A stretch of 64,000 nucleotides of DNA, from NCBI RefSeq assembly GCF_963921235.1, contig NC_086097.1:21826001-21890000 (forward strand), in the 5' to 3' direction. The notes below the pieces were generated by a model, which saw only the letters and a program-made list of their open reading frames with translations, was not told the origin of the DNA and ran no database searches. Every line of letters begins with the position of its first letter. Positions within the stretch are counted from its first letter, which is position 1. The stretch comes from Mobula hypostoma. Taxonomy: Eukaryota. Below, in pieces: positions 4,916 to 40,299 of the stretch. The position numbers and the translations under genes were made by a program.

Positions 4916-4944
4916 TTACTTTAAGATAAGCTCACATTTTCTAC

Positions 4945-8495: not shown

Positions 8496-8951
8496 GTCGA
8501 TGTTCATGCCATCAGGTTGGAGGCTGCCCAACACCTTATATTCCGTCTGGGTAGCCTCCAACCTGATGGCATGAACATCGACTTCTCTAACTTCCGCTAA
8601 TGCCCCACCTCCCCCTCGTACCCCATCTGTTACTTATTTTTATACACAAATTCTTTCTCTCACTCTCCTTTTTCTCCCTCTGTCCCTCTGAATATACCCC
8701 TTACCCATCCTCTGGGTCCCCCCCCTTGTCTTTCTTCCCGGACCTCCTGTCCCATGATCCTCTCGTATCCCTTTTGCCTATCACCTGTCCAGCTCTTGGC
8801 TCCATCCCTCCCCCTCCCCTCCAACTTTCAAATCCCTTACTCACTCTTCCTTCAGTTAGTCCTGACGAAGGGTCTCGGCCTGAAACGTCGACTGCACCTC
8901 TTCCTAGAGATGCTGCCTGGCCTGCTGCGTTCACCAGCAACTTTTATGTGT
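8496..8951 (+). mobile_element. Young Penelope-like element 3' end with 5' inversion
   Basis: ORF end HLIFRLGSLQPDGMNIDFSNFR* (8531-8600), typical of the PLE GIY-YIG C-terminus; pyrimidine-rich UTR; hammerhead; inverted 35-bp copy at 8496-8530. Confidence 0.85.
8857..8894 (+). ncRNA. Minimal type I hammerhead ribozyme
   Basis: TAGTC-CTGACGA-AGGGTCTCGGCCT-GAAA-C-GTC-GACTG; stem I UAGUC/GACUG, complete catalytic core, predicted cleavage after C8889. Confidence 0.8.
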
Positions 8952-9027
8952 GGAGCCTGATAATATACCTGGTTGGGTGCTGAGAGGCTGTGCAGCCCAG
9001 TTAACAGAGGTTCTAACATACATCTTT

Positions 9028-10849
9028 CACATGAGAGAGGTCTGGATGGGGATGAGGACCATCACTGGGTTCCGGCAAACTAGCAACAGAGGAGCTGAAG
9101 GCAGTGTAGACAGGGCCAATGAACTTAACCTGTTCTTTAACAGATTTGACATTGTGGCCCCTGTCCATCCCCCACATGATTCATCTGTTGTTGGCCCCCA
9201 ACCAACACATATTCCACTCTCCCCTCCTACCTCTCCTCACAGTCCCCCACCCTGCTCTCATGACTATACCCCTTCCCCCCACGGTGGGCTTCACAGCTGA
9301 ACAGATGAGAAGACAGCTGAAACGTCTCAACCCAAGCAAGGCTGCAGGACCAAATGATGTCAGTACCAGGGTGCTCAAAGCCTGTGCCCCTCAGCTACGT
9401 GGAGTACTTCCCCATGTATTCAACCTGAGCCTGAGGCTCCGGAGGGTTCCTGTACTGTGGAAGACATCCTGCCTCGTCCCTGTGCCGAAGACGCCGTGCC
9501 CCAGCGGCCTCAATGACTACAGACCGGTGGCATTGACCTCCCACATCATAAAGACCCTGGAGAGACTTGTTCTGGAGCTGCTCCGGCCTATGGTCAGACC
9601 ACACTTAGATCCCCTCCAGTTCGCCTACCAGCCCCGACTAGGAGTTGAGGATGCCATCGTCTACCTGCTGAACCGTGTCTACGCCCACCTGGACAAGCCA
9701 GTGAGCACTGTGAGGGTCATGTTTTTTGACTTCTCCAGTGCGTTCAACACTATCCGCCCTGCTCTGCTGGGGGAGAAGCTGACAGCAATGCAGGTGGATG
9801 CTTCCCTGGTGTCATGGATTCTTGATTACCTGACTGGCAGACCACAGTACGTGTGCTTGCAACAGTGTGTGTCCGACAGAGTGATCAGCAGCACTGGGGC
9901 TCCACAGGGGACTGTCTTGTCTCCCTTTCTCTTCACCATTTACACCTCAGACTTCAACTACTGCACAGAGTCTTGTCATCTTCAGAAGTTTTCGGATGAC
10001 TCTGCCATAGTTGGATGCATCAGCAAGGGAGATGAGGCTGAGTACAGGGCTACGGTAGGAAACTTTGTCACATGGTGTGAGCAGAATTATCTGCAGCTTA
10101 ATGTGATAAAGACTAAGGAGCTGGTGGTAGACCTGAGGAGAGCTAAGGTACCGGTGACCCCTATTTCCATCCAGGGGGTCAGTGTGGACATGGAGGATTA
10201 CAAATACCTGGGGATACGAATTGACAATAAACTGGACTGGTCAAAGAACGCTGAGGCTGCCTACAAGAAGGGTCAGAGCCGTCTCTATTTCCTGAGGAGA
10301 CTGAGGTCCTTGAACATCTGCTGGACGATGCTGAGGATGTTCTACGAGTCTGTGGTGGCCAGTGCAATCATGTTTGCTGTTGTGTGCTGGGGCAGCAGGC
10401 TGAGGGTAGCAGACACCAACAGAATCAACAAACTCGTAAGGCCAGTGATGTTGTGGGGATGGAACTGGACTCTCTCACTGTGGTGTCTGAAAAGAGGATG
10501 CTGTCTAAGTTTCATGCCATCTTGGACAATGTCTCCCATCCACTACATAATGTACTGGTTGGGCACAGGAGTACATTCAGCCAGAGACTCATTCCACCGA
10601 GATGCAGCACAGAGCGTCATAGGAAGTCATTCCTACCTGTGGCCATCAAACTTTTCAACTCCTCCGTTGGAGGGTCAGGCACCCTGAGCCAATAGGCTGG
10701 TCCTGGACTTATTTCATAATTTACTGGCATAATTTACATATTACTACTTAACTATTTATGGTTTTATAACTATTTATTATTTATGGTGCAACTGTAACGA
10801 AAACCAATTTCCCCTGGGATCAATAAAGTATGACCATGACTATGACTAT
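9028..10849 (+). mobile_element. Young 5'-truncated Rex1 LINE with nearly intact RT
   Basis: ORF 9119-10687: [53 protein letters not shown]; frameshifts near 9290 and 10440; AATAAA plus (ATGACT)n tail. Confidence 0.92.
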
Positions 10850-11235
10850 CACTAACAGTCAAGTGTTCTTGCAGGCTTCAAGGCAGCCACCATCATCCCA
10901 GTACCTAAGCAGGCACCAGTGGCACTGAACTTGACAGTAATGAAATGTTTTGAGCAGCTGGTTATGGATGGCATTAACTCCCATCTTCCTGCTACATTGG
11001 ACCCTTTCCAGTTCGCTTATTGTTCAAATCGGTCTGCTGATGATGTGATAACTTCTGCACTCCACTCCTTGCTGCCCCACCTGGAAAATGGTGTCACATA
11101 TGCTCAGATGCTGCTTATCAACTTCAGCTTGGCGGTTAATACAACCATTGGGTAAGCTGTCCTCATTAGGTCCCAACACCTCTGCCTATACTTGGATCTT
11201 GGGCTTCTTGACAGAAAAACCAGTCAGTCCGTGTA

Positions 11236-13797
11236 GAGATTGTCAGGAATGACATTGTGGGCATTACTAAGTCATGGCTGAAAGAAGATCATAGTTGGAG
11301 TTTAACGTCCAAGGGTACACCTTGTATCAAAAGGACAGGCAAGTAGGCAGAGGTGGTGGGGTGGCTCTGTTTGTAAAAAGTGAAATCAAACCCTTAGAAA
11401 GGGGTGACAAAGCATTGGAAACTGTAGAATCCTTGTGGGTAGAGTTAAGAAACTGCAAAGTTAAAAAGACTCAGGTGGGAGTTTTGTACAAGCCTCCAAA
11501 CAGTAGCCTGGATGTGGGGTACAAATCACAATGGAAGATATAAAAGATATGTAAAAAGGGCACTGTTATGACAGTAATGGGGGATTTCAAAGTGTAAGTA
11601 GATTGGGAAAATTGGGATGGTGCTGGATTCCAAGAGAGGGAATCTATGCATGTTTTTTTTTAGAGCAGCTTGTGCTTGAACCCAAGAGGGCAAAGGCAAT
11701 TCTGGATTGGGTGATTTGTAATGAAGCAGGTAAAGTAACTTTTAAGTGGCAGTGATCATAATATGATAGAATTCACCCTGCAGTTTGAGAGGGAGAAGAT
11801 AAAGTCAGATGTATCAATATTACAGAGGAATTAAGGGAATTACAGAGGGATGAGCGAGGTGCTGGCTAAAGTTGATTGGAAGGGGACTCTAGCAGGGATG
11901 ACAACAGATCAACAATGGCTGAAGTTTCTGGAGACAGATTGGAGGGCACAGGATAGATATATCCGAAAGTTGAAGAAGTATTCTAAAGGAAAGATAACAC
12001 AACCATGGCTGACGAGGGAAGTCAAAGACAGCAGAAAAGCAAAAGAGAGGAAATACAATACATATAGCAAAAATTCGTGGAAAACGAGAGGATTGACAAG
12101 CTTTTAAAAACTAACAGAAGGCAACTCGAAAAGCCTTTAGGAGAGAAGAAATGAACTATGAAGGGAAGCTAGCCAACAATATAAAATAAGGTACCAAAAG
12201 TTTTTTTCAAATATATAAAGAGTAAAAGAGAAGCATGAAAAGATATTGGGTTGCTGGAAAATGATGATGGAGAGTTGGTAATGGGGGACAATGAAATGGC
12301 GGAGGAACTTAAAAAGTATTTTGCATCACAGTTCTGAAAGAGGGAGCTGAAGAGATTGTGGAGGCATTAGTAATAATCTTTCAAGATTCACTTGATTCTG
12401 GAATGATTCCAGAGGACTGGAAATTGCTAATATCACTCCACTCTTTAAGAAGGAAGGGAGGCAGAAGAAAGGAAATTATAGGCCAGTTAGCCTGACCTCT
12501 GTGGTTGTGAAGATGTTGGAGTCCATTATTGAAGACGAGGTTTCCCGGTACTTGGAGACGCATGTTAAAATAGGTCAAAGTCTGGAAGGGGATATCTTAT
12601 TTGACACCTCTGCCGGAAGTTTTTGAGGAAATAACAGATAAGATAGACAAAGGAAAGTCAATGGATGTTGTTTACTTGTATTTTCAGAAGGCACTACACA
12701 TGAAGCTGCTGAACAAAGTAAGATCCTATACTGGAAAAGTACTAACATGGATCGGAAGATTGGCTGAGTGGCAAGAGGCAAAGAGTGGGAATGAACGGGG
12801 CCTTTCTGCTTGGCCTCTGGTGACTAGTGCTGTTCCGCAGTGGTCGGTGTTGGGACCGCTTCTTTTCATGTTATACTTGAATAATTTGGATGATGCAATT
12901 GATGGCTTTGTGGTCATGTTTACAGACAATATGAAAGTAGATAGAGGGGCAGGTAGTGTTGAGGAGGGAGGGAGTCTGTAGAAGGGCTTACTCAGATTGG
13001 GAAAATGGGCAAAGTGGTTGATGGAATATAGTGTAGGGAAGTGTATGGTCATGCACTTTGGTAGAAGGAATAAAGGGTTAGACTAAATTTCAAAAATCAG
13101 GTTGCAAAGAGACTTGGGAGGTCTTGTGCAGGATTTGTAGGTTGAGTCGGTGGTAAGGAAGACAAATACAATGTTAGTATTCATTCTGAGAGGACTAGAG
13201 TATAAGTAAAAGCAAGGATGTAATGCTGAGGCTTTATAAGGCATCGGTTAGACTAGGTTTGGAGTGCTGTGAGCAGTCTTGGGCCCTTATCTATGTGGAG
13301 GCGCTGGAGAAGGTTCAAAGGATGCTCATGAGACTGATTCCAGGATTGAAAGGATTAACCTCTGAGTAGCATTTGATGGCTCTGGGCCTGTACCTGCTGG
13401 AGTTCAGAAGAATGAGGGAGGATCTCTTTGAAGCCTATCAAATATTAAAGTGTCTGCATAGAGTGGGTGTAAGATGCATGTTTTCTATAGTGGGTGAGCC
13501 TAGGATCAGAGAGTATAGCCTAAGACTAGAGGGGTGTCCATTTAGAGCAGAGATGAGGAGGAATTTCTTTAGCCAGATGGTAGTGAATCTGTGGAATTCA
13601 TTGCCACGGACAGCCGTGGAGCCAAGTCAGTGAGTATCTTTAAAGTGGAGGTTGATAGTTTCTTAATTAGTCTGGGTCAAATGTTATGGGGAGAAGAAGA
13701 AGAATGAGGTTGAGGGATAATAAATCAGCAATGATGGAATGGCAGAGCAGACTCAATGGGCCGAATGGCCTGAGTTTTTTCCTATGTCTTATGGTCT
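11236..13797 (+). mobile_element. Decayed CR1 LINE, ORF2 region
   Basis: GGGVAL, SLWVELRN, YKPPNS, MFTDN (from FADD), FRRMREDL, VVNLWNSLP; many stops and deletions; CR1 tail. Confidence 0.88.
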
Positions 13798-14149
13798 AAC
13801 TTTACTCACTCCTTATACTGAACTATTCCCACAACCTATGGACTGACTTTCCAGGACTTCATTTCGTGTTTTGGATATATATAGTTTATTTATTTATTTG
13901 TTTATTATTATTAATGTTCTCTTTTTTATTTGCACAGTTTGTTGTCTTTTGCACATTGGTTGTTTGTTCATCTTGTGTGTGGTTTTTCACTGATTCTATG
14001 GTGTTTCTTTGTATTTGCAGTGACTATCCACCAAAAAATAACTCTCACAGTTGTATATGGTGACGTATATTTACTTTGACAATAGATTTATTTTAAACTT
14101 TGATCTTTAACTATAATGTTTCTGTTTATTGCTAGGATAAAAAGTGAAA

Positions 14150-14698
14150 TATATTATCGAACTACCTATATGTTATCTTGAGATTCATTTTCTTGTAGGC
14201 AGTTATGGGAAGATAAAGAACATAGAATTTATGCAAAACTGTACATAAACAAAGGCTGACAAACAACCAATGTGCAAAAGAAGACAAACTGTACAAATAA
14301 AAGATATTTACTGATTACGTGTGTTGTAAAACTTCCTGAGATTGAGTCTGTAGGTTGGGTTGTGCTGAGTTGTGTCGAGTTGCGGTGAGTGAAGTTATCC
14401 AGGCCGGTTCAGGAGCCTGATGATTGTGGGGAATTACTGTTCCCAAGCCTGGTGGTTTGGGACCTAAGGTTTCTGTACCTCTTGCCCAATGAGAAGAAGG
14501 GATGGCCTGGATGACGGGGGTCCTTGATGTTGGATGCTGTTCTGGTTCAGCAGCTCCGTATGTAAATGGTGAAGATGGCTTTCCCTGTGACAGACTGAGC
14601 TGTACACATTTCTTTTCTTGGCATTGGTGTTCCCATATCAGACCATGACACTTTCCAGTTCAGATGCACTCCACAGTGCATCTATAGAAGTTCATCTA
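14150..14698 (-). mobile_element. Rex1/Babar 3' fragment
   Basis: Same UTR and coding remnants as 977-1660 (ACAAACAACCAATGTGCAAAAGAAGACAAACTGT); a + strand copy of this UTR lies at about 13800-14105. Confidence 0.65.
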
Positions 14699-15730
14699 GT
14701 TCAAGTTCAAGTTGCATTGTCATTCAACCATACATAAGTGTTGGGCACGTGGCCAAGTGGTTAAGGCGTTTGTCTAGTAATCTTAAGGTTGCTAGTTTGA
14801 GCCTCAACTGTGGCAGCGTGTTTGCGTCCTTGAGCAAGGCACTTAACCACACATTGCTCTAGTGTCTGTGTGAGGAATGACTTCAATCTGCGCCTTGTAA
14901 GGCATGAAAATGCCCGACGCAGGTCTCTCATGGTTTGAGTCGACGTTCCCTCCCTCCCCATGCATGTGAATGCAGGCAAATGAAAAAGCGTTCCTCTGGG
15001 ACCAAGGTGGAAAACACAGTGCCAACAGTCACAACACACAGCACGTATAGCCAAATAATTATGATAGTAGAAAAGCAAACAGTTACAAAAAGAAATAAAA
15101 AATAATAATATAGCCCAAGCATCTGGATGTCATGCCTGGTATATTGATGTCGCATTCATGTTGACCTGAAGCCATTTTTCTGCATGAGCAAGGTCCACAG
15201 CAGTTCCTCATATCACATAGTGCTCCGAGTGGCACTGGACAGCAGCACTGACAGTGGGGGCCAGCCCCCGACCCGGTGTGGAATCCAGCAGCACTCAGCC
15301 AGCTCTGGCAGTTCCTTCCTTGGCAGCTGCAACAGGCATGAGGACCAGGACCATGCCACAACTGCGGCCGTGCAGCTCACCAGCTGTAGTTCTCAACAGT
15401 GAACCAGTATTCCACGATCCAGTTGTCCAAATGGGTCTTGTGATCACCATAAAGATGTCCAAGGCAATCAACCACACCAACTGTTGGACTACACTCCGCC
15501 TCCGATGCCTTCTTCCCTGGGTATCTGAAGCAGGTTGCAACAAGGCAACATGGTGCTCAAGCCCAGCTCTTGCTACTATAGAACAAATCGCCAGTGGGGT
15601 AGAGTTCCAGTGCTTGATGTTCTTGATAACTAGTAGTGTCCTGCATTTGTGATAAAGATGTAAAGATCAAGCAATTACAGCTTTGCTTATACCCAGAGAG
15701 GCCACCGCACCCGAGAATGTTGCCATCTCA
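14699..15730 (-). mobile_element. Non-coding retroposon with (TTGAAC)n tail
   Basis: Tail TTCAAGTTCAAG at the left end; 3' region similar to the + strand copy at 44470-44710; putative 5' end reads GAGATGGCA. Confidence 0.5.
14743..14958 (+). mobile_element. tRNA-derived SINE with CORE-like domain
   Basis: A box TGGCCAAGTGG, degenerate B box AGTTTGAGCC, CORE-like GTCCTTGAGCAAGGCACTTAACC, (CCCT)n tail; nested in the previous element. Confidence 0.7.
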
Positions 15731-15928
15731 AGAGTAGATGGAGAACGCCTGAACGCCAACAGAGACCCGAGTAAGGTAATAAGAAATGGAAGAAATAGGA
15801 GCTTCTCATGCCTTGTTCGAAATTGAGTAAGACATTGATCTTTTGCCTTAACACTCCCTCACTCCCTTCTTTCCCAACCCCTTAAAAACTGATCCCTGTC
15901 TTGAACAGACTCCAGACAGCTCCAGGAC

Positions 15929-16060
15929 TCCTGACGAAGGGTCTCGGCCTGAAACGTCGACTGCACCTTTTCCTACGGATGCTGCCTGGCCTGCTGCGTT
16001 CACCAGCAGCTTTTATGTGTGTTGCTTGAATTTCCAGCATCTGCAGAATTCCTGTTGTTT
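15929..16060 (+). mobile_element. Short Penelope-like 3' end starting at the hammerhead
   Basis: Core 15931-15963 identical to 8862-8894; 5' arm of stem I partly replaced by flank (ACTC instead of AGTC). Confidence 0.8.
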
Positions 16061-16769
16061 GTGCCATAATATATTATTTTTTATAAGAAAGGGCTCTGCA
16101 CCTCATGTTCTCAATATTATTTATTTACTTATTTATTACACTTTGTGTTATTTTCATAGTTTGTCTTCTTTTGCACATTGGTTGTTTGTCAGGCTCAGTG
16201 TGCAGTTTCTCATTGATTCTATTGTTTTTGTTCTGCTGTGAATGCATACAAGAAAATGAACCTCAGGGTTGTATATGGTGAAATACACAGTATGTACTTT
16301 GATAATAAATTTACATTGAACTTTGAAATGGGAGTGTTCTGGCTTTAAATTGTACGTATATACTGAATGCTTGTGAGAAATTTAATCTCAGGGTAGTATA
16401 TGGTGATACAGGATATACTTGTATCTTGATGATAAATTTACTTTGAACTTTGAAATTTGAATTTAGACAGTGCAACTTAATGATATGGAGTCAGATGGCA
16501 CATATCTAACTGAATATCATTATATCATAATATAAAAAGATAACTGAGACTGAATTAAGTCGAATTGATTGTAAATGTTGTGATGTCTTTTTTATATCAT
16601 CTCCTCTTCTCAAGATTTGACTTCATCATCATCTGAAATGGTCATATGAATGTGTGCCAAAATGTTACCACCTCAATATGCCAATATGGATGAGTGCCTG
16701 CCAGTCAGCATGGATCAGGTGGGCCAAATGGCCTGTTTCATTCTGTATGATTTGATGGCCATGAAATGC

Positions 16770-18280
16770 GGAGGCATTGGCAATGATCTTTCAAAAGTCG
16801 AAAGATTCTGGCATGGTTCCGGAGGACTGGAAGATTGCAAATGTCACTCAGCCATTTAAGAAGGGGGCAAGGAAGCAAAAAGGAAATTATAGACCTGGTG
16901 GTTGGGAAGTTGTTGGAGTTGATTGTTACAGATGAGGTTACGGAGTACCTGGAGGCATATGATAAGATAGGCAGAACTCAGCATGATTTCCTTAAAGGAA
17001 TATCCTGCCTGACCAATCTATTACAATTTTTTGAGAAAATTACAAGTAGGCTAGACAAGGGAGATGCAGTGGATGTTGTACATCTGGATTTTCAGAAGGC
17101 TTTTGACAAGGTGCCACACATGAGGCTGCTTAACAAGATAAGAGCCCATGGAATTATGGGTAAGTTACATACGTGGATAGAGCCTTGGCTGATTGGCAGG
17201 AAACAAAACAGAGAGTGGGAATAAAGGGATTCTATTCTAGTTGGCCGCCGGTTACCAGTGGTGTTCCACAGGGGTCTGTGTGGGGGCCGCTTCTTTTTAC
17301 GTTGTACATCAACGATTTGGATTATGGAATAGATGGCTTTGTGGCTAAGTTTTCTGATGATACGAAGATAGATGGAGGGGCTGGTAGTGCTGAGGAAACA
17401 GAGAGTCTGCAGAGCGACTTGGATAGAATGGAAGAATGGGCAAAGAAGTGGCAAATGAAATACAGTGTTGGAAAGTATCTGGTTATGCACTTTGGCAGAA
17501 CAGATAAATGGGCAGACTATTATTTAAATGGGGAGAGAATTCAAAGTTCTGAGATGCAACGGGAATTGGGAGTCTTCGTGCAGGATACCCTTAAGGTTAA
17601 CCTCCAGGTTGAGTCGGTGGTGAAGAAGGCGAATGCAATGTTTGCATTCCTTTCTAGAGGAATAGAGTATAGGAGCAGGGATGTGATGTTGAGGCTCTAT
17701 AAGGCGCTGGTGAGACCTCACTTGGAGTACTGTGGGCAGTTTTGGTCTCCTTATTTAAGAAAGGATGTGCTGACGTTGGAGAGGGTACAGAGAAGATTCA
17801 CTAGAATGATTCTGGGAATGAGAGGGTTAACATATGAGGAACGTTTATCCACTCTTGGACTGTATTCCTTGGAGTTTAGAAGAATGAGGGGAGACCTCAT
17901 AGAAACATTTCGAATGTTGAAAGGCATCGACAGAGTGGATGTGGCAAAGTTGTTTCCCATGATGGGGGAGTGTAGTACGAGAGGGCATGAGTTAAGGACT
18001 GAAGGGCGCCCATTCAGAACAGAGATGCGAAGAAATATTTTTAGCCAGTGGGAGGTGAATCTATGGAATTTGTTGCCCCGGGTGGTAGTGGAGGCCAAGT
18101 CATTGGGTGTATTTAAGGCAGAGATTGATAGGTATCTAAGTAGCCAGGGCATCAAAGGTTATGGTGAGATGGCGGGGGAGTGGGACTAAATGGGAGAATG
18201 GATCAGCTTATGATAAAATGGCAGAGCAGACTTGATGGGCCAAATGGTCAGCTTCTGCTCCTTTGTCTTATAGTCTTATG
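16770..18280 (+). mobile_element. 5'-truncated CR1 LINE (RT)
   Basis: ORFs 16835-17224 and 17173-18189: LDFQKAFDKVPH, GVPQGSV, KFSDDTK, LVRPHLEYC, RRMRGDLIE; CR1 tail. Confidence 0.93.
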
Positions 18281-18352
18281 CTCTAAGAGGTATAGGGCCT
18301 TCAGAAACAATTCTCATAAAGGTTGCTCATAGCACTGATCCTTCTTTGTAAT

Positions 18353-18545
18353 ACACACCAACAATTGCTGGTGGAACTCAGCAGGTCAGGCAACACTTGC
18401 GGAGAAGAATAAAGAGTCAACATTTTGAGCCGAGACCCTTCGTCTACGGAGTTGCTTTCCATAGATGCTGTCTGGCCTGCTGAGTTTCTCCAGCATTTTG
18501 TGTGAGTTACTGTAGATTTCCCACACCTATAGAATCCCTTGTCTT
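18353..18545. mobile_element. Inverted pair of old Penelope-like termini
   Basis: Minus copy 18353-18444 (reverse complement GACGAAGGGTCTCGGCTCAAAATGTTGAC) followed by plus copy ATAGATGCTG..CTGCTGAGTTTCTCCAGCA. Confidence 0.7.
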
Positions 18546-18676
18546 TATTATTTTTTGTAATATTTGTTGACTGATTGAGCAGTAGGTATTGAAATTAAAT
18601 AGGTTTAAACTCTGCATAACTTGAAAAAGAAGATGGACTTAATTTCACTCTATTACTTTGTATTTCTATGTGGAAG

Positions 18677-18756
18677 GAGGAAGATCAAAGAAGCTTGAAT
18701 CTTCTAAAGGATCTTGTCTACTTCAGTTGCAATAAAGTTATTCTGAAGTTGGCCAG
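18677..18756 (+). other. Candidate host-gene exon, unidentified
   Basis: Pyrimidine-rich tract then AAG acceptor; open frame EEDQRSLNLLKDLVYFSCNKVILKLA; donor uncertain (AG|GCATGT); phase-compatible with the candidate at 9-66. Confidence 0.2.
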
Positions 18757-19269
18757 GCATGTACTGTATAGCAATTGCTTTGGCGGCCTTCAGAGTAATG
18801 TAGAAGAAAAGATTGGATTCCGTTCCTGAGACAATTGCGACTTTACACAAAATTGAGGGACGTACAGCTCGAGGGAAATCCACTTACATTTACTGTCATT
18901 GATTTTTGTAAGGCTTTCATCCATGTGTCTGATGCGGCTCTTGAGACAACCAAGTCTTGGATTCTATCCAGGCTGTGATTTTTTTCTGTGGTTAATTTCT
19001 TGTAATGTCCGTACTGTGCGTACCTTCATTCTTGACAATCAACTTGACCCCTTGGGTTTGCCATACCATCTTGGGCAATTTATGGTACAAGAAAAAGGAC
19101 ATGTAGCCCAGTGAACGATACATTTATACCAATATGATATCCCAGCCTTGTAGGTTAAGGCAGTTTTTACAGGGTTCTGCCTCCATCACTCTTTCAGACG
19201 ATGGTTTCCAGATGCCCATTGAAAATATTTTTGCTCATCCTCCCTCTAATCCTTCTACAGATTAGTTTA

Positions 19270-20060
19270 CATAGGACAGAGAGCATTACAGTCCAGTGCA
19301 GCTCCTTTGGCTCATGACGTAGTGACAACCTTTTAACCAACTCTAAGATCAATGTAACCCTTTCCTCCGACATAGGCCTCCATTTTTCTATCATCCATAT
19401 GCCCAACTAAGAATCTCTTAAATGTCCCTAAAGTATCTGCCTTTACCACCACCCCTGGCAGGCATTCCACACACCCATCAGACTATGTAAAAAAACTTAT
19501 CTCTGACATCCCCCCATACTTTCCTCCAATTACCTGAAAATTATGTCTCCTTATATTAGCCATTTCCGCCATGGGGAACAGCCTCTGGCTGTCCACTAGA
19601 TCTAAAAATAAGTCACCTTAGAAATAAAATGTACAAGATTTACAAGTCAAAGGTTACAAGATCACATTCCGGGCTATAGGTTGACTCATTATAGAGCCTG
19701 ATTGCTGAAGGTAAGAATGACCTTATATAGTGCTCTTTAGAGCAGTGCAGTTGTCTTAGTCTTTTACTGAAAGTGCTCCCCTATTCAGCCAAGAGGGTGA
19801 GAAGCATTGTCCAGAATAGCCAGGATTTTCCAGAGGGTCCCTTGTTTTACCACATCCTTCAGTGTGTCCAGTTTGACCCCTATAACAGAACCAGCCGTTA
19901 GTTCATTGAGCCTACTGGCATCACCCGTCTTGATGCCATTGCCCCAGCATATCACCGCATGGAAGATTGTACTGGTGAAAAACAGTCTGGTAGAACGTAG
20001 CCCTAGCTTGCTCAATCTATCCTCCTAAGACATCTCCAATCCAAACAGAATAGTTTAAAT
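19270..20060 (-). mobile_element. CR1 3' fragment interrupted by a Rex1 3' fragment (about 19610-19995)
   Basis: CR1 3'UTR and ORF end on the left; ORF 19785-20015 HAVICWG..ILAILDNASHPL matches the C-terminus of the Rex1 at 10384-10695. Confidence 0.65.
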
Positions 20061-20159
20061 CTAAATCTTCTTGCCAAGGAAAGGAAGTCCCTTGTGCTCA
20101 CTCCAAGAGGGGTTCTTGTAACTATCTACCCCTCTGTGGTGGCTGCATTCCACAAGGAG

Positions 20160-29235: not shown

Positions 29236-29479
29236 TGTGATTGCAGAGTGCTCAAGTACAACAACAGCAGAACAACAGGAACAAATCTAAAACAGCAAAA
29301 CAAGCCACTTACCTTATTCCCACCCTACCGTGCCTACACACCGACAGGCTGCCTTCAGCCTCCAGCCTCCAGTGGACTCAGACTCACAAACATTGGGCTT
29401 TCAGCTTCCCTGGCAGACCTGCAGGGATTCACAGATCCAGGCTTTGCCAATGTCCAATTCTTTCTTGAAAAGTATGCTT

Positions 29480-30025
29480 ATGATGATGATTATGATTATG
29501 AGGACACGAGGTCCCCTTTTATTGTCGTTTAGTAATGCATGCATTAAGAAATGATAAAAATGTCTTTCCAGAATGATATCACAGAAACACATGACAAACC
29601 GAATTATAAACTAACAAAAACCACATAATTATAACATATAGTTACAACAGTGCAAAGCAATACCGTAATTTGATAAGAACAGTCCGTGGCACAGTAAAAG
29701 TCACAGAGTCTCTCGAAAGTCCCATCATCTCACGCAGACGGTAAACCTCCAGTGCCGCCAACTTGCCGGTGCAGCATACCGGAAGCATCGGACCACAGTC
29801 TGACTCTGAGTCCGTCCGAAAAACTCCAAGCCTCCGACCACCTATTTGACACCGAGCACCGAGCACTATCTCCGCCGAGCGTTTCGATCCCAGCTCCGGC
29901 AACAGGCGGTACGCAAAGCCGAGGATTTGGGGCCTTCGTCTCTGGAGATTCTCGATCGCACAGTAGCAGCGGCAGCGAAGCAGGCATTTCAGAAGGTTCT
30001 CCAGATGTTCCTCTGCGTTTTCACG
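29480..30025 (-). mobile_element. Non-coding retroposon family A, 5'-truncated copy
   Basis: Aligns by eye with 38633-39165 and 62680-63360 (TTTAGTAATGCATGCATTAAGAA, CCACATAATTATAA, TTTCAGAAG..CTCCAGATGTTCCTC). Confidence 0.8.
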
Positions 30026-30029
30026 AGCG

Positions 30030-30380
30030 AGAAGCTGGGAGGTGATAGGTGGAAAAAATAAAAGGCTGAAGAAGTATGAATCTGACAGGAGAGAAGAGCG
30101 GACCATGGGAGAAAGGGAAGAAGGAAGACACCAGAGGGAGGTGATAGGCCAGTAAAGGGGTAAGGGAGCAACCAGAATGGGGAATGGAAAAAGTGAGAGG
30201 GAGAGGGGAGGAAATTACCAGCAGTTTGAGGAATCGATGTTCATGCTGTCAAGATGGAATAATCAGATGGAACAAGAGATGTTGCTCCTCTGACCTGAGA
30301 GTGACCACGTTATAGTAGTAGAGGTTCCACGTGCTGGAAAGGGAATGGATAGTGGAATTAAAATGGCTGGCCACAGGAAA
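30030..30380 (-). mobile_element. Old Penelope-like fragment (GIY-YIG C-terminus and UTR)
   Basis: Minus strand VASHFNS, EEQHL and MNIDSSN remnants; purine-rich tract on +. Confidence 0.7.
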
Positions 30381-30699
30381 TATTTATAAAACTGTGCCTG
30401 TGTTCTGAAATTACTTTCTTCCTTGTACTACCTCAATGTATTATGTTTGAAATGAGCTGGAGGCATGCCATGCAAAACAAAGTTTTTTGCTGTATGTCAG
30501 TACATGGAACAATAATAAACCAGTTTGCCATTTACTTCAGGATTAACTGCTTTCTGGGGTAGAAAAATCACCAGTTACACTACTCTCTGATAGAAGAAAT
30601 ATCTCTACTTCTTTTTAAATGGCTTATTCCTCATCCACTGACTGTGACCTATTGTCATAGTCTCTTCTAGTAATGTGAACAGCCTTACCCCATCTAATC

Positions 30700-30778
30700 C
30701 AGGGGTTCCCAACCTTCTTTATGCCATGGACCAGTAGCTTTAAGCAAAGGGCCCATTGGCACCAGGTCGGGACCTCTG
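30700..30778. mobile_element. hAT-type MITE, 79 bp
   Basis: Imperfect TIRs CAGGGGTTCCCAACC / GGTCGGGACCTCTG; perfect 8-bp TSD ATCTAATC at 30692-30699 and 30779-30786. Confidence 0.85.
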
Positions 30779-30894
30779 ATCTAATCTATCTTGTATGGTG
30801 AGCAGCTTTTGGCTCCGCTTCTAAGAAAGGATGTGCTGACATTGGAGAGGGTCCAGAAGAGATTTATGGGAATGAAAAGGTTAATGAATGAGGA

Positions 30895-32960
30895 GCTCCT
30901 CCGCCTATCTTTGTATCATCCAAATACTTGGCTACGAAGCCATTAATTGCAAATCATTGACATCTTCTTCTTCATGTGCCTTGCTGGTTACATCCATATC
31001 GAACGATCCCTCGCAGCGTCAATGATATCGCACACACTTAGATCTGTTAGATCTTTCACAGTGTCCATATATTTTCTTCTTTGCCTTCCTCTTCCACTTT
31101 TCCCAGGCATACGGCCTTGTAATGTAAGGCATTCTATTTCTCCCTTTCTGATGATATGACCCAGGAATTTAAGTTTCCTCTCATTTAATGTTCTCACTAA
31201 AGATCTTCTTGTATGGGCATGTTGGAGTACTATCTCATGCGTTACCCTATCTCTATATGATATTTTCGGCATTCTTCTAAGAAACCACATTTCTGTTGCT
31301 TCTAAGTTTCTTTGGAGTTCTGGTGTTATAGTCCATGTTTCGGAAGCATACAGCAAGATTGACCAGATGTAACATTTCAGTAGCCTAAGCCTTGTTGTCA
31401 TAGAAATGTGTCTGTTGGTAAAAATGGATTTCATTTTTTGGAAGGTGGTTTTGGCAATGGCAATTCTTCTTTTTATTTCTACTTTACTTCTAGCATCTTG
31501 TGATATAAAGCTACCAAGGTAATTACAGCTGGTCCTTTGTTCAATCTCTTGGTTACCGATGTACAATTGGCAGTTGGGAGTATCCTGCTGTTTTGATGTT
31601 ACCATATATTTTTTTTACAGTTGGTGGTTAGACCAAAATCTACACTTGTTTGTACTACTTTGTCTAGGAGGATTTATAGGTCTTCTGCAGCACTTGCTAT
31701 TAGGGTGGTATCGTCTGCATATCTTATATTGTTGATGTTAACACCTCCAACCCTTATCCCACATTCACATATAACATGAAAAGCAGCAGTCCCATAATTG
31801 ATAAGGCAACCAGATAAGGCCTCTTTTTTCCTACTGGTTGCCTCCTGTCAGTCAGCAAATTTCTGTCCAAGCTAATATCTTTTCAGTAATACCATGAGTT
31901 CTTATCTTGATTATCAGCCTCATGCACAACACCTTGTTAAAGGTCTTCTGAAAATCTAAGTAAGCAATTTCTACAATATCCACTCAATCTCCTTGGTCTA
32001 TCCTGCTTGTTATTTCCTCAAAGAAGTCTAACATATTTGTCAGGCAAGATTTCACCTCGAGGAAACCATGCCGACTTAGCCTTATTTTATCATGTGCTCC
32101 AAAACCTCATCCATAATAATGGACTCAACATTTTTTCAACCACTGAAGTTAGCCAACTGGTCTGTTGTATGATTTCCAGTCTTTTGCTCTTTTCCTTCTT
32201 AAAGAATCGAGTGACATTTGCAATTTTCCAGTCCCCCAGAACCATGCCAGAATCAATTTATTCTTGAAAGATCATTTCTAATGCCTTCGCAATCTCTTCA
32301 GCCACTTCATTCAGAACCCTGGGGTGCAGTCCATTTGGTCCAGGTGACTTATCTACCTTCAGACCTTTCAGTTTCCTAAGTACCTTCTCCTTAGTAGTAG
32401 CAACTACACTCACTTCTGCCCCCTGACACTCTCGAATTTGTGATATTCTGCTGGGGTTGTCCGTAGTGAAGACTGAAACAAAATACTTGTTAAGTTCCTC
32501 TGCCATTTCTTTGTCCCCCATTTTTACCTCTCCAGCATCATTTTCTAATAGACCAATATCCAGTTTCACCTCTCTTTTACTTATTACATGTCTGAGAAAT
32601 CTTTTGGTATTTTTTATATTTTTGGCTTCATATTTCATCTTTTCTCTTTATATTTCTTCTTAGTTGCCTTTTGTTGGTTTTTAAAAGCTTCACAATTCCC
32701 TAGCTTCCCACTATATGTTTGCTATATTGTATACCCTCTCTTCAGCTTTTATGCTGTCTTTGACTTCCCTGGTCAGCCACGGTTGCCTCTTCCTCCCTTT
32801 GGAATATTTCTTCTCTGTGGGTTGAATCTATCCTATGCCTTGTGTATTGCGCCAGGAATCGCCAGGCTTTCCTGTTCTGCCATCATTCGTGCTATTGTCC
32901 CCTTCCAATCAACTTTGGCCAGCGTCTGTCTCTTGTCTCTGAGGTTCCCTGTACTCCATT
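30895..32960 (-). mobile_element. Decayed CR1 ORF2 fragment interrupted by an RTE
   Basis: EMAEELNKYF and KSPGPNGLHPRVL in ORF 32258-32638. Confidence 0.8.
30964..31761 (-). mobile_element. 5'-truncated RTE-clade LINE
   Basis: NINNIRYADD, YLGS, RRIAIAK, LLYASETWT, GRGRQR; (GAA)n tail; imperfect TSD CATTGACAT/CATTCACAT. Confidence 0.9.
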
Positions 32961-33104
32961 GAGAAAGTGATGTACTGTAGTCCAGTAGTTATCACTCCAG
33001 TGATCTACACTTATTGCTGTTTGTATGGGCTTTTCAAGATCTGCCCGTGACCGCAGGACTCTGCGGGAGAATGCAGATTTGGGGAGTTAGCCATTGTGTT
33101 CAGG

Positions 33105-33630
33105 CCACATTACGGTAGCACAGTGGTTAGTGCAACTCTTTGCAGCTCAGGGTGTTCCGGAATTTGGAGTTTAGTTCCAGAGTTGTTCTGTAAGGAGCCT
33201 CTGTACGTCGTTCCCGTGGAATGCGTGGGTTTTCCCCAGGTGCTCTGGGTTCCTCCCATGGTCGGATAATTCATCACTGCAAACTGTCCTGTAATTGGGA
33301 TAAGGTTAACTGCGGTTGTTGGGGCGGCGTGGCTCGAAGGGCGGGAAAGGCCTACTCCTCATTGCATCACTAAATAAATAATTACGTGTCTGTTTCTTTT
33401 ATTTAGAGATACTGCATGGTAACAGGCCCTTCTGACCCAACGAGCACGCACCACCCAATTACACCCATGTAACTGATTCACCTACTTAGCCATACATCTG
33501 GAATGTGGAAGGAACCTGGAGGAAACCCAGACAGACACGGGGAATATCAAACTCCTTACAGACAGTGGCGGAATTGAACCATGGTCATTAATATCTGTAA
33601 TAGCGTTATGCTTACTGTTACACTACCTTG
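33105..33630. mobile_element. Two tail-to-tail V-SINE (HE1-like) copies
   Basis: + copy: GGTAGCACAGTGGTTAG head and V-domain TGCGTGGGTTTTCCCCAGGTGCTCTGGGTTCCTCCCA; - copy: AAACTCCTTACAGACAGTGGCGGAATTGAACC; further - copies at about 38050-38270 and 50405-50600. Confidence 0.7.
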
Positions 33631-33970
33631 TTGCCCTTCAATTATATCTTCAGCGGATATCAATGGCCTCTCGTTGTAACGTATCTATTCATGGGAGCTT
33701 TCTGTACACTGTTTTACTGCACCATTTCCCATTTCACATTTCAGTGCTATAAAGTGCTCTGGGACATTATGAAAGGTACTGTGAAAACCTAAACTTTGGA
33801 AATCATAGTGCACAGATTTAATTTGTCTGATGAAACCTCTAACAAGATCAGTGGGAATTTCTGAGGAAACATGATGAATTGCAGACACAGGATGACTCAT
33901 GTCTGGAAACGCTGTTCAGTGTGTCACTGACCTTACAAAAAGGTGTCATTATTGTGCACTCAGGGAATTA

Positions 33971-34507
33971 CACTCAGTGGCCACTTTATTAGGTACAGAA
34001 GGTACCTAATGAAGTGGCCACTCCGTATTTCTGTATGTTCATTGTCTTCTGCTGCAAGGCCAGGCGTGTTATGTGTTCGGAGGCGCTGTTCTGCACGCTA
34101 CTGTTGTAACGCGTGGTTATTTGAGTTACTCTCGCCTTCCTGTCAACTTGAACCAGTCTGGCCATTCTCCTCTGACCTCTCTCATTAACAAGGCACTTTC
34201 ACCCACAGAACTGCCGTGCACTAGATGATTTCTGTTTTTGCACTATTCTCTGTAAACTCTAGAGACTGTTGGGTGTGAAAATCCCAGATCAGCAGTTTCT
34301 AAGATACTCAAACCACCCCGTCTGGCATCAATAATCATTCTATAGTCAGTGTCTCTTAGATCACATTTCTTCCCCATTTTGATGCTTGGAACCTCTTGAC
34401 TATATCTGTACGTTTTTTATGTATTGAGTTACTGCCACATGATTGGCTGATGAGATATTTGCATTAATGTGCAGTGGAGAGGTACACTTAATAAAGTGGT
34501 CACTGAG
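33971..34507 (-). mobile_element. Non-autonomous Tc1-like DNA transposon
   Basis: TIR CACTCAGTGGCCACTTTATTAGGTAC after TA, inverted at 34482-34507; internal minus-strand remnant GLSILETADL..GFSHPTVSRVYRE of a Tc1 transposase N-terminal HTH. Confidence 0.8.
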
Positions 34508-36324
34508 AAGAAATTTGCTGCATACATCTCTGTCATATAGTTAAGATCAAGAGTACAAGGATTCTGCTATCAGGGTTGGTAGGTTGTAATGTTCCATAGA
34601 ACATAGAACATTACAGCACAGAAACAGGCCTTTTGGCCCTTCTTGGCTGTGCGAAACCATTTTTCTGCCTAGTCCCACTGACTTGCACCTGGACCATATC
34701 CCTCCATACACCTCTCATCCATGTACCTGTCCATGTTTTTCTTAAATGTTAAAAGTGAGCCTGCATTTACCACTTCATCTGGCAGCTCATTCCACACTCC
34801 CACCACTCTGTGCAAAGAAGTCCCCCTCCAATGTCCCCTTTAAACTTTTCCCCCTTCACCCTTAACCCATGTCCTCCGATCCCTCTGTTCTAATGCACTC
34901 CTCAGTGCCCTACCATTTACCTTGTATGTTCACCTTGGTTTGTCCTTCCAAAGTGCAATACCTCACACTTGTCTGTATTAAACTCCATCTGCCATTTTTC
35001 AGCCCATTTTTCCAGCTGGTCCAAATCCCTCTGCAAGCTTTGAAAACCTTCCTCACTGTCTACTACACCTCCAATCTTTGTATCATTAGCAAATTTGCTG
35101 ATCCAATTTACCACATTATCATCCAGATCATTGATATAGATGACAAATAACAATGGACCCAGCACTGATCCCTGTGGCACACCACTAGTCACAGGCCTCC
35201 ACTCAGAGAAGCAATTCTCTACCACCACTCTCTGGCTTCTTCCATCGAGCCAATGTCTAATCCAATTTACCACCTCTCCATGTATACCTAGCGACTGAAT
35301 TTACCTAACTAACCTCCCATGCGGGACCTTGTCAAAGGCCTTACTGAAGTCCATGTAGACAACATCCACTACCTTCCCTTCATCCACTTTCCTGGTAACC
35401 TCCTCGAAAAACTCTAATAGATTGGTCAAACATGACCTACCACGCACAAGGCCATGTCAACTCTCCCTGATAAGTCCCTGTCTATCCAAATACTTGTAGA
35501 TCCTATCTCTCAGTACTCCTTCCAATAATTTACCTACTACCGATGTCAAACTTATTGGCCTATAATTTCCTTGATTATTTTTAGAGCCTTTTTTAAATAA
35601 CGGAACAACATGAGCTATCCTCTAGTCCTCCAGCACCTCACCCATAGATACCGACATTTTAAATATATCTGCCAGGGCCCCTGCAATTTCAACACTAGTC
35701 TCCTTCAAGGTCCGAGGGAATACCCTATCAGGTCCTGGGGATTTATCTACTCTGATTTGCCTCAAGACAGCAAGCACCTCCTCCTCCTCAATCTGTATAG
35801 GTTCCATGATCTCACTACTTGTTTGCCTTATTTCCATTGACTCCATGCCAGTTCCCTTAGTAAATACAGACGCAAAAAACCCATTTGAGATCTCCCCCAT
35901 TTCCTTTGGTTCCATACATAGCCGACCACTCTGATCTTCAAGAGGACCAATTTTATCCCTTACTATCCTTTCGCTCTTAATATACCTGTAGAAGCTCTTT
36001 GGATTATCCTTCACCTTGACTGCCAAGGCAACCTCATGTCTTCTTTCAGCCCTCCTGATTTCTTTCTTAAGTTTTTTTTGCACTTTTTATACTCCTCAAG
36101 CACCTTATTTGCTCCCTATTTCCTATACACATCATACAACTCTCTCTTCTTCTTTATCAGAGTTGCAATATCCCTTGAGAACCAAGGTTCCTTATTCTTA
36201 TTCACTTTGCCTTTAATCCTGACAGGAACGTACAAGTTCTGCACTCTCAAAATGTCTCCTTTGAAGGCTTCCCACTTACCGATCACATCCTTGCCAGAGA
36301 ACAACCTGTCCCAATCCACGCTTC

Positions 36325-36712
36325 CCACCTCCCCCTCATACCACATCTGTTATTTATTTTTATACACACATTCTTTCTCTCACTCTCCTTTTTCTCCCTC
36401 TGTCCCTCTGACTATACCCCTTGCCCATCCTCTGGGTTCCCCCCCACCCTTGTCTTCCTTCCCGGACCTTCTGTCCCATGATCCTCTCATATCCCCTTTG
36501 TCAATCACCTGTCCAGCTCTTGGCTCCATCCCTCCCCCTCCTGTCTTCTCCTATCATTTTGGATCTCCCCTCCCCCTCCTACTTTCAAATCTCTTACTCA
36601 CTCTTCCTTCAGTTAGTCCTGACGAAGGGTCTCGGCCTGAAACGTCGACTGTACCTCTTCCTAGAGATGCTGCCTGGCCTGCTGCGTTCACCAGCAACTT
36701 TGATGTGTGTTG
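36325..36712 (+). mobile_element. Young Penelope-like 3' end inserted in a CR1
   Basis: Very similar to 8604-8951 and 39905-40299; host CR1 continuous across it. Confidence 0.85.
36614..36651 (+). ncRNA. Minimal type I hammerhead ribozyme
   Basis: Identical to 8857-8894; predicted cleavage after C36646. Confidence 0.8.
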
Positions 36713-38279
36713 CTTTTTAGATCTTTTCTCATTTCTTCAAATTTGGCCTTCTTCCAGTTTAGAACCTCAACCCAAGGACCAGAACTATCTTTATCCATGA
36801 TCAAGTTGAAACTAATGGTGTTATGATCACTGGAACCAAAATGTTCCCCTACACACACTTCCGTCACTTGTCCTAACTCATTTCCTAATAGATCTAATAT
36901 TGCATCCTCTCTAGTTGGTACCCCTATATATTGATTTAGAAAACTTTCCTGAACACATTTTACAAACGCTAACCCATTTAGACCTTTAACAGTATGGGAA
37001 TCCCAATCAATATGTGGAAAATTAAAATCCCCTACTATCACAGCTTCATGTTTCCTGCAGTTGTCTGCTATTTCTCTGCAGATTTGCTGACTATGGGGTG
37101 GTCTATAATACAACCCTATTAATGTGGCCATACCTTTCCTGTTTCTCAGCTCCACACATATGGCCTCGGTAGACAGCTCCTCTAATCTGTCCTGCCTGAG
37201 CACTGCTGTAACATTTTCCCTGACTAGCAATACCACCCTTCACCCCTCTGCCTCTGTCACGTCTGAAATATCAGAACCCTGGAACATTAAGCTGCCAGTC
37301 CTGCCCTGGCTGTACATTTCCCCTCCTTCTCCTGACAGTCACCCAGTTACCTGTCTCCTGCAACCTAGGGGGTGACTACCTCCCTGCAGCTCCCATCAAC
37401 ACCTCATTCTCCCGTATGAGTCAAAGGTCATCAAGCTGCAGCTCAGTGCATCTGGCATGGATGTATTTCTCCGGGAGACTGGAGGTCTCCCAGTCTTCCC
37501 ACACCCCACACCCAGGACAAAACACTGCCTCGGAGCCATTCTCACTCCACTACTACGCACAAACAGATGAGGAATGAACAAAGAAGAACATTAAGAGGAG
37601 AGCGCCACTTACAAGACAATTTACCCCAGCCCAGCTTGATGAGCCAAGCCACTCTAAAGCCAAGTGAACTGCCATTCCACTTGAACTTGAATTATTCTTA
37701 TTGGCCCTTTCTAATGAATCCCTCTTGCCGATTTGTCGCACCTCAAATCAGGATACCTGCCATGAAGCTCCTCTTTAGAAATCTCGATTGGTGCCTTGAT
37801 TAAAATGTACCCCTTTCCACGCACCCCTGGTGTGGATTGTCCAACTCAAAGAAAACTGGCTCGAAGCTCTGCCTTTTAAATCTTGAACGCCAACCTGACT
37901 GAACGGTCGCTCTTTTTATGCAATGCCACTTGCTGATTCGTCGCTCCTCAAATCAGAAAAACTGCTGCAAAACTCTGACTTCAAAATCTCAAATCACCAC
38001 CCTGATTAAAAAGTAGCTCTTTACATACAGCCCTGGTGTGGATCATCACACGTACCCAGAAACATTACAACGTACAGTGAAATGTGTTGTTTGCAACAGA
38101 TCAGATCGGTGAGGATTGTCCTGGGGGCAGCTCAAGATTGTTGCTCACAACTCACTAACCCTAATCCGTACATCTCTAGAGCGTGGGAGAAATCTAGAGC
38201 ATCCGGATGAAACTCATGCGGTCACAGGGAGACCGTACAAAGTCCTTACAGATAGCGGTGGGAATTGATGATCTCATAG

Positions 38280-39440
38280 CACAGTTGTAGAGATTGGTAG
38301 GTATGACATTGTGGCCATCACTGATTCATGGCTGAAAGAAGATCATAGTTAGGAGCTTAACATCCAAGGATATACATAGTATCCAAAGGACAGACAGACA
38401 GGCAGAGGGGGTAGTGTGGCAAAAAAATGAAATCAAATCCTTAGAGAGAGGTGACATAGGATCAGAAATGTAGAATCCTTGGGGGTAGAGTTAAGAAATT
38501 GCAAATGTAAGAAGACCCTTATGGGAGTTATATACACGCCTCCAAACAGCCAGGAGATGGGATGCAAATTATAATGGAAGATAGAAAATGTTACGATAGT
38601 CACGGCGATTTCAATATGCAGGTAGATTGGGATTTTAGATTTAGATTATGAAGACACGTAGTCCTCTTTTATTGTCATTTAGTAATGCATGCATTAAGAA
38701 GTGATACATTATTTCCTCCGGTGTGATATCACAAAACACAGGAAGGACGAAGACTGAAAAAACTAACAAAACCACATAATTATAACATATAGTTACAACA
38801 GTGCACAATACCATAACTTGATGAAGAAGTCCACGAGCACAGTAAAAGTTCAAAGTCTCTCAAATGTCCCACATCTCGCGCAGATGGGAGAAGGAAGAAA
38901 AACTCTCCCTGCCATGCCGACCACAGTCCGACTCTGAGTCATCCAAAAACTTCGAGCTCTGTTCAGCTCTCCGACACTGAGTACTGAGCGTCATCTCTGT
39001 CCGAATGATTCGACCTCCTCGATCGCCAAAAGCAGGCAAGGCCAGGGATTTTGAGGCCTACTCTCCGAAAGATTCACGATCACACAGTAATGACAGCAGC
39101 GAACTGGCGTTTCAGAAATTTCTCCAGATGTTCCTCTGTGCTTTCACATCCATTCTCCATCAAAGAGATGCCTTTTCAGAGCAGCTTGTGTTTGAGCCCA
39201 CTATGGGACCAGCTATTCTGGAGTGGATGTAGTGCAATGAACTGGAATTGATTAGGGAGCTTAAGCTAAAGAAACCCTTCAGGGATACTATGATAGAATT
39301 CACCCTGCAGTTTGAGAAGGAGAAGCTGAAGTCAGATGTATCAGTACTACAGTGCAGTAAAGGGATTTACAGAGGCATGAGAGAGGAGCTGGCCAGAGAT
39401 AACTGGGAAGGGACACAAGCAGATATGATGGCAGAACAGC
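38280..39440 (+). mobile_element. CR1 APE-domain fragment interrupted by family A
   Basis: YDIVAITDSWL, GVIYTPPNS and MIEFTLQFEKEK remnants. Confidence 0.75.
38633..39165 (-). mobile_element. Non-coding retroposon family A copy
   Basis: Homologous to 29480-30025 and 62680-63360; tail TTAGAT repeats on +. Confidence 0.8.
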
Positions 39441-39876
39441 GATCTAGAAAAATCACGCAGGTTCTTGGCATTAATAGTGAGTTTTTTATTGACCTCACTG
39501 AAGGACCTAGAATGGGAAAGTCAAGGTGTTGCCTCCCTACTCCCTATATGGTGTTGCCACATCATATTGAATCATCATTCATGCAGGGAGCTTTATCATG
39601 AAGACTTCATGAGCCATGGTATTGGATTGCTGTTGGAAGTCTTAACATGTCTGTGCTACCCGTAGCACATTCTCCCACTGTGCTCCCACCTCACATTCTA
39701 CGAAAGTCTGGCTCATCCAGAACTCTGTATCTTAATGGAGATCAAATTTTGTGAGATAATCCATCAATCCTATGAGATCATCCATCAATCCCCTCTGATC
39801 ACCCATAAGTCCTGTGAGATAATCCATCAATCTCCCCTGGTCAACTTGATTTAAAACAAATCATGTCTTTTTAAGA

Positions 39877-40299
39877 ACATTGACTTCTCAAACTTCCGCT
39901 AATGCCCCACCTCCCCCTCGTACCTCATTCGTTATTTATTTATATACACACATTCTTTCTCTCTCTCTCTCCTTTTTCTCCCTCTGTCCTTCTGACTATA
40001 GCCCTTGCCCATCCTCTGGGTTTCCCCCCCCCCTTTTCTTTCTCCTTGGGCCTCCTGTCCCATGATCCTCTCATATCCCTTTTGCCAATCACCTGTCCAG
40101 CTCTTGGCTCCATCTCTCCCCCTCCTGTCTTCTCCTATCATTTTGGATCTCCCCCTCCCCCTCCCACTTTCAAATCTCTTACTAGCTCTTCCTTCAGTTA
40201 GTCCTGACGAAGGGTCTCGGCCTGAAACGTCGACTGTACCTCTTCCTAGAGATGCTGCCTGGCCTGCTGCATCCACCAGCAACTTTGATGTGTGTTGCT
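39877..40299 (+). mobile_element. Young Penelope-like 3' end with 13-bp TSD
   Basis: Starts at IDFSNFR*; TSD TGTCTTTTTAAGA at 39864-39876 and 40300-40312. Confidence 0.88.
40199..40236 (+). ncRNA. Minimal type I hammerhead ribozyme
   Basis: Identical to 8857-8894; predicted cleavage after C40231. Confidence 0.8.

Follow-up and report, generated by a model that had tools for sequence, protein, structure and literature searches.

Whether a short sequence repeated without change in a stretch of animal DNA encodes a ribozyme, which element carries it and whether its RNA is cleaved are the questions raised by 64,000 nt of the cartilaginous fish Mobula hypostoma (contig NC_086097.1; hereafter the window, to whose coordinates all positions refer unless the element L031 is named). 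From its letters alone, the window had been read as holding four identical minimal hammerhead ribozyme cores of 33 nt in young termini of a recently active Penelope-like element (PLE) family. We find that the motif is very probably a minimal type I hammerhead of the pseudo-long terminal repeat (pLTR) and 3′ untranslated region (UTR) of a Neptune-type PLE that has left well over 60,000 ends in this genome, a reading in which we include the mechanistic steps proposed below.

The repeated core and its relatives

Each of the four claimed plus-strand sites (8862, 15931, 36619 and 40204) carries the 33-mer without a change, and its four CpGs fall at motif positions 5–6, 15–16, 25–26 and 28–29. Allowing up to 3 mismatches brought no further site in the window, and 100 shuffles yielded 0 occurrences. 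Genome-wide (3.48 Gb, 200 contigs), we found 39,061 exact copies, 0 copies of the reversed pattern used as a control, and a further 24,598 copies of a variant with C for T at motif position 20, CpG decay being allowed. At a mean density of approximately 0.72 per 64 kb, at least four copies per window have a Poisson probability of approximately 0.006 (hand calculation); the window is locally rich in the 33-mer, and no special cause is needed. Because the majority core is unaltered in 32 of 63 copies picked by open reading frame (ORF) peptide, the chance of four identical cores is approximately 7%. The four-fold identity is not chance, yet it is unremarkable for a genome with 39,061 copies. The family was also found in contigs of three other organisms, where one core position, a CpG, appears among the 40 of 100 variants listed.

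Copies 1, 3 and 4 contain the CUGANGA and GAAA boxes, an NUH triplet and a stem I that closes the ends. Read in order, they give a 5-bp stem I (UAGUC/GACUG), CUGACGA, a stem II of 3–4 bp, GAAA and CGUC, with a palindromic 15.1–16.1 segment, ACGU, in place of a stable helix III; relatives have ACGU, AGCU or ACCGGU there. This bears out the claimed architecture except for stem I of copy 2, where GACUC stands in place of UAGUC and 2 pairs are followed by C-C and G-G mismatches. An unpaired A precedes stem II, between positions 9 and 10.1; this register has a predicted pair probability of 0.96, versus 0.02 for the rejected register with A-U closing.

To characterize related elements, we collected 80 metagenome loci and kept the 34 that had an ORF end and at least 300 nt behind it, dropping 46. 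Within 800 nt of the ORF end, 13 of these 34 loci have the arrangement CUGANGA...GAAA in sense orientation, and none (0/34) has it in antisense. A strict descriptor was passed by 5/34 loci belonging to three distinct families, with 0 antisense matches and 0 in shuffles; the stem I pairs of the strict matches were CACA/UGUG, GCGA/UCGU and AGGA/UCCU, and their palindromes ACGU or AGCU. By inspection, and in a small sample, this points to stem covariation across three families. Seven distant metagenome PLE loci (L100, L110, L111, L116, L102, L109 and L117) differ in that their boxes lie at a greater distance from the ORF end or their palindromic stem III is longer.

Conservation within the genome was measured on 63 of 75 alignments, with loci picked by ORF peptide and the 12 that did not span the ORF end to past the core dropped. 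Non-CpG differences amounted to 0.95% in the core plus stem I versus 3.4–5.3% in flanking UTR blocks, and CpG positions within the core differed in 7.9%. Sites variable at the subfamily level (minor letter in at least 9 of 63 copies, judged by eye) numbered 0 of 38 in the core plus stem I versus 33 of 354 in the UTR (P approximately 0.02). A core no more conserved than the adjacent UTR had been named, alongside absent cleavage at GUC, as a finding that would speak against a ribozyme, and the core proved the less variable of the two. The sense-only recurrence behind related ORFs is stronger evidence for a hammerhead than conservation within one genome.

The element and its insertions

When the genome was searched with the peptide at the ORF end of copy 1, 150 matches out of 119,236 candidates were scored. 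Several of them lie in long open frames, and we identified a complete unit, L031 (C12:170304001-170313500), with the order pLTR-ORF-pLTR. Its pLTRs are 734-nt direct repeats, 99.73% identical, each with an exact hammerhead core on the ORF strand, 3.5 kb apart. The open frame matches RVT_1 (E 3.6e-5) and GIY-YIG (E 1e-3), has homologs with the same reverse transcriptase (RT) and GIY-YIG domains, and contains a C-x4-C-x2-C linker and DKG and YIDD motifs; the closest named homologs of the protein are from the shark Chiloscyllium punctatum (71% and 67%). Judged by the RT with C-terminal GIY-YIG domain, partial-tandem pLTRs, 5′ truncation and tail, the family is an endonuclease-containing (EN+) PLE, in line with the claim of Penelope-like termini. 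We assign it tentatively to the Neptune type by its linker, which Nematis shares; in both Neptune and Nematis, RT is joined to EN by a C-x2-5-C-xx-C linker (Craig et al. 2021, PMC8557442; this and the other published comparisons refer to the portions of each source that were covered). Since the frame is open, the pLTRs are 99.73% identical and copies more than 99% identical to L031 exist in the genome, the family has been recently active, as claimed. L031 has two possible start codons, at L031:3270 and L031:3348, of which the latter is likelier; the upstream in-frame ATG falls in the region of the 3′ tail, and most or many related copies have GTG in its place. The predicted cut lies approximately 140 nt before the likely ATG.

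Copies of the family show 5′ truncation, inverted 5′ copies and an optional 30–40 nt tail, all traits of EN+ PLEs. Counted from core position 1, and only on alignments extending beyond +40, their 3′ ends are bimodal, with 36/79 at +82–98, 39/79 at +123–137 and 4/79 elsewhere. Among the first 100 exact copies listed, 22 belong to head-to-head pairs within 2.2 kb and 4 to same-strand pairs (by eye). Because a head-to-head transcript carries one sense hammerhead, dimers in cis would arise only in tandems such as L031. That the window copies might pair as a dimer in cis was considered and set aside: all four lie on the plus strand (chance 1/8), they are spaced 3.6–20.7 kb apart and nothing points to a shared transcript.

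These structures are observed in the copies; the mechanism we propose for them is modelled on the biochemistry of the Poseidon element PAc of Anolis carolinensis, in which two RT start sites define a 30–40 nt tail and both strands are extended (Frangieh et al. 2024, PMC11167929). The RT–GIY-YIG protein would nick DNA and start reverse transcription at two sites, approximately 60–70 and approximately 100 nt downstream of the hammerhead, and most cDNAs would stop early, so that most copies would be short 3′ ends with the hammerhead in them, many arranged head to head. The hammerhead seems to have stayed intact in the master lineages, and this would imply a role for it as RNA.

The minimum free energy structure predicted for the 38-nt monomer (−11.0 kcal/mol) pairs GACG of the catalytic box with CGUC at a probability of 0.98, and the open hammerhead form reaches −7.0 kcal/mol, with nearest-neighbour energies that leave out core tertiary structure. 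The lone RNA is therefore predicted to fold as an inactive hairpin. Such an auto-inhibited monomer would fit the low activity that PLE minimal hammerheads show as dimers (Cervera and de la Pena 2014, PMC4209133) and the protein-dependent cleavage of PAc (PMC11167929). By analogy with published systems, the RNA would be cut after GUC only if two copies paired through their ACGU segments, if the element protein assisted, or both; its likeliest job may be the occasional trimming of tandem or read-through transcripts, and the RNA being reverse-transcribed would be mostly uncleaved.

Evidence for and against cleavage

Several results weigh against this reading. The youngest subfamily, including the window 33-mer, has a G·U wobble at the usually conserved G10.1–C11.1 pair, and the proposed check with hammerhead covariance models came back empty, an Rfam scan of the window giving no hammerhead match at E ≤ 1. 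Other 33-nt windows of the UTR are identical in 59–70% of copies versus 51% for the core, and the Fisher test of core conservation (P 6e-14) overstates it, as the copies share ancestry. Both Pfam matches of the L031 frame fall below the curated cut-offs (24 versus 29.6 bits and 19.8 versus 22.6 bits). A double hammerhead is predicted at −11.5 kcal/mol versus −22 for two monomer hairpins and −30.3 for an extended duplex, and 5′ junctions do not pile up strongly at the cut site. The wobble is a variant and not an exclusion, since pairing is kept, and the pair is G-C in the 24,598 related copies.

If the RNA were frequently cleaved in vivo and the cleaved RNA copied to run-off, insertions would begin exactly at GACUG, that is, at core position 29. 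Genome-wide, position-specific patterns gave 372 junctions at this position and 43, 139, 97 and 98 at positions 28, 30, 31 and 32. By-eye typing of the first 100 matches listed for each pattern, or of all if fewer, assigned those at 29 to two types of inverted join (44), other inverted joins (24), plain flanks (19) and indels (13). Each of 20 examples of the two inverted types came from a separate insertion event and had a direct arm that begins at 29, the feature for which they had been selected; usually one arm was short and the other carried a tail. Against a footprint, these two types are explained by GACT or GAC microhomology, and inverted joins of other kinds in the vicinity of the core equal or exceed them in frequency: of 775 such joins, the first 100 listed, typed by eye, include 15 with CGTC microhomology, other types at 9, 8 and 5, and the two cut-site types at 8 and 5. 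Microhomology at palindrome centres explains most of the position-29 peak. What is left is an extrapolated excess of plain-flank joins, approximately 71 at 29 versus approximately 8, 33, 18 and 24 at 28, 30, 31 and 32, which is small and partly fed by CpG decay, because such decay shifts joins at position 28 into 29. An unbiased pattern for junctions within the core gave 6,175 matches, and the 100 listed (approximately 11 of them indels; judged by eye) start over positions 5–40, with only 4–5 at 29. As all 372 junctions make up less than 1% of copies, templates are mostly uncleaved, in agreement with PAc, and we regard frequent cleavage followed by run-off copying as improbable. We would likewise give little credence to the narrower proposal that the family holds a countable genomic record of in vivo cleavage, with insertions of the non-inverted kind that start precisely at the GUC cut genuinely in excess by two- to three-fold.

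Somewhat easier to entertain, if still unlikely, is that a hammerhead-derived motif now serves mainly as a structural or protein-binding part of the ribonucleoprotein used in retrotransposition, or persists as a vestige, with negligible cleavage. The predicted monomer hairpin buries the catalytic core, the dominant young subfamily (39,061 copies) has the G10.1·U11.1 wobble where 24,598 copies have G-C, and cut-site joins are no commoner than other microhomology joins. In PAc, too, catalytic mutants had no effect on insertion and RNA-sequencing reads neither began nor ended at the cut site, although the PAc hammerhead does cleave with protein present (PMC11167929). Against a mere structural role, all catalytic nucleotides and the palindromic stem III persist both in this family and in distant relatives with changed stems. 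For the one deletion tested, no amplified subfamily without the CUGA box turned up: the candidate without CUGACG, taken from 3 of 100 listed junction rows, has 2 copies genome-wide. That the hammerhead reading picks up a chance resemblance within an amplified repeat, whose identity would reflect copy number only, is hardly credible. Rfam finds no match and a high copy number suffices to make identical 33-mers common, but the same boxes, the extra A and the palindromic stem III recur at the same place behind related ORFs, on the sense strand only, and the motif matches four unbiased features in PMC4209133. The metagenome relatives largely refute the chance reading. We retain the minimal hammerhead of a Neptune-type PLE as the best explanation.

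A side observation concerns the joins themselves. The inverted-join types at the hammerhead have an AG or CT centre between GTC and GAC, beside the CGTC join; deletions in the hammerhead region run between repeated CTGA, GAC or ACG words; and these recurrent joins and deletions arose independently in several subfamilies, providing a data set on how PLE double-arm insertions are joined.

Window copies, known systems and significance

The four window copies are solo 5′-truncated ends of somewhat older subfamilies, and they are probably passive relics. The description of the termini as young holds for the family; the window copies themselves are only 86.6–94.7% identical to the youngest element (Table 1). 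Copy 1 begins with a 35-nt inverted piece (8496–8530) joined to the truncated PLE end, which holds the last codons of the GIY-YIG domain, a stop at 8598–8600 and a pyrimidine-rich 3′ UTR with a 33-nt deletion before the hammerhead. An 11-nt inverted repeat near the end of the GIY-YIG coding region serves as its inverted junction (8496–8577); the best-scoring peptide matches of the genome (L012–L030) appear to share this join, several of them as head-to-head pairs, which suggests a recurrent join site. A 7-nt inverted remnant lies directly 5′ of copy 2. Decayed relatives in the same window were absent from the earlier count of four.

Table 1. PLE-derived features of the window and layout of the complete element L031 (percentages are identity to L031)
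Feature	Position	Strand	Description
Copy 1	8496..8952	+	5′-truncated PLE end; terminates at first 3′ end cluster; 86.6%, gaps included
Hammerhead, copy 1	8857..8894	+	stem I 5′ 8857-8861; CUGACGA 8862-8868; stem II; GAAA; palindromic ACGU; stem I 3′ 8890-8894; predicted cut after 8889
Copy 2	15929..16059	+	starts 2 nt before core; approximately 37-nt 3′ tail; 94.7%
Hammerhead core, copy 2	15931..15963	+	full stem I impossible; predicted cut position after 15958
Copy 3	36324..36715	+	UTR-only PLE end within minus-strand EN/RT LINE; 4-nt duplication GCTT; 92.1%
Hammerhead, copy 3	36614..36651	+	minimal; predicted cut after 36646
Copy 4	39875..40301	+	last approximately 8 ORF codons, UTR, hammerhead; 13-nt target-site duplication; 89.0%
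Hammerhead, copy 4	40199..40236	+	minimal; predicted cut after 40231
Decayed relative	4789..4916	+	CpG-eroded core; CAGTC stem I; 77.8%
Older head-to-head pair of relatives	18365..18539		18365-18444 minus, 18455-18539 plus
Older fragment like the element's GIY-YIG C-terminus	30223..30377	-	69.3%
Decayed relative	57845..57950	-	73.6%
L031 layout	L031 coordinates		pLTR 2577-3310; ORF 3267-6398 (1043 codons, open); pLTR 6091-6824

Elsewhere in the window, a tandem array at 1661–3693 consists of 78 copies of a 26-nt unit with 91% matches, and its long stop-free frames are repeat artefacts. A near-complete long interspersed nuclear element (LINE) at 51573–55614 on the minus strand, which we take to be CR1-like, has a 900-codon EN and RT frame; upstream of this, a frame of 350 codons encodes a GDSL esterase domain, and many more fragments of such LINEs fill the window. 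RT frames of other LINE types occupy 9110–10687 (plus strand, 525 codons), just downstream of copy 1, and 47342–48415 (minus strand, 357 codons). Three weak Rfam matches to microRNA families in the window were rejected as palindromes; one of these, a 67-nt near-perfect palindrome at 33966–34032 and the source of a spurious match to mir-9256, resembles a very small inverted-repeat element.

Minimal hammerheads are known from the pLTRs of metazoan PLEs, among them Xena, Poseidon and Neptune of fishes, with approximately 4,000 copies in the coelacanth and approximately 9,000 in Xenopus (PMC4209133). The motif described here resembles these in being of type I, with a 4–5 bp stem I, an unpaired nucleotide 5′ of stem II and a palindromic 15.2–16.2 segment without loop 3, and in occurring mostly as solo copies in truncated elements with some opposite-strand pairs. 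It differs in its higher copy number (39,061 identical copies and 24,598 more with C11.1), in its short stem II (3–4 bp) and in the G·U that replaces G10.1–C11.1 in the young subfamily, and its homogeneity is nearer to that of Drosophila virilis (97/130 identical) than to the variable families in the same source. PAc shares the pLTR-ORF-pLTR order and a hammerhead upstream of two RT start sites, seen here as bimodal 3′ ends, but belongs to the Penelope/Poseidon clade and has a hammerhead overlapping the start codon, whereas the element here has the Neptune-type linker and is cut well before its likely ATG (PMC11167929). With the Neptune clade it has in common the C-terminal GIY-YIG domain, linker, partial tandems, inverted 5′-truncated copies, tail and canonical hammerhead (PMC8557442). 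Non-LTR retrozymes likewise contain a type I hammerhead tied to PLE pLTRs, from which they derive, but form tandem arrays (Li, Clavereau and Pollet 2026, bioRxiv 10.64898/2026.07.22.740005); the copies in the window lie scattered as single ends, with remnants of the ORF and duplicated target sites, and no head-to-tail array of hammerhead units was present in the window.

Whether the family had been described in this lineage was left uncertain by the sequence-only reading, and the gap is narrow. The covered portions of PMC4209133, two supplements included, nowhere name a cartilaginous fish, the Squalomix preprint mentions neither Penelope nor a ribozyme, and we found no PLE hammerhead in a named shark or ray in the literature, where Lunse, Weinberg and Breaker, supplements and Repbase or Dfam may list the family; against this, the 2026 preprint reports one chondrichthyan genome with hammerhead retrozymes, of average consensus length 363 bp. 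The arrangement has been known since 2014, and a lineage and a record copy number are added to it, not a new system. Particular to this family are its scale, homogeneity, G·U variant and predicted auto-inhibitory hairpin.

The role of PLE hammerheads has been called unclear (PMC8557442). Were a genomic record of cleavage real after all, the count of over 60,000 copies, together with the intact element, the auto-inhibitory hairpin and the subfamily switch from G-C to G·U at pair 10.1–11.1, would make that role directly testable. With an intact young element and tens of thousands of junctions for statistics, this genome is usable as a test bed for what the PLE hammerhead does.

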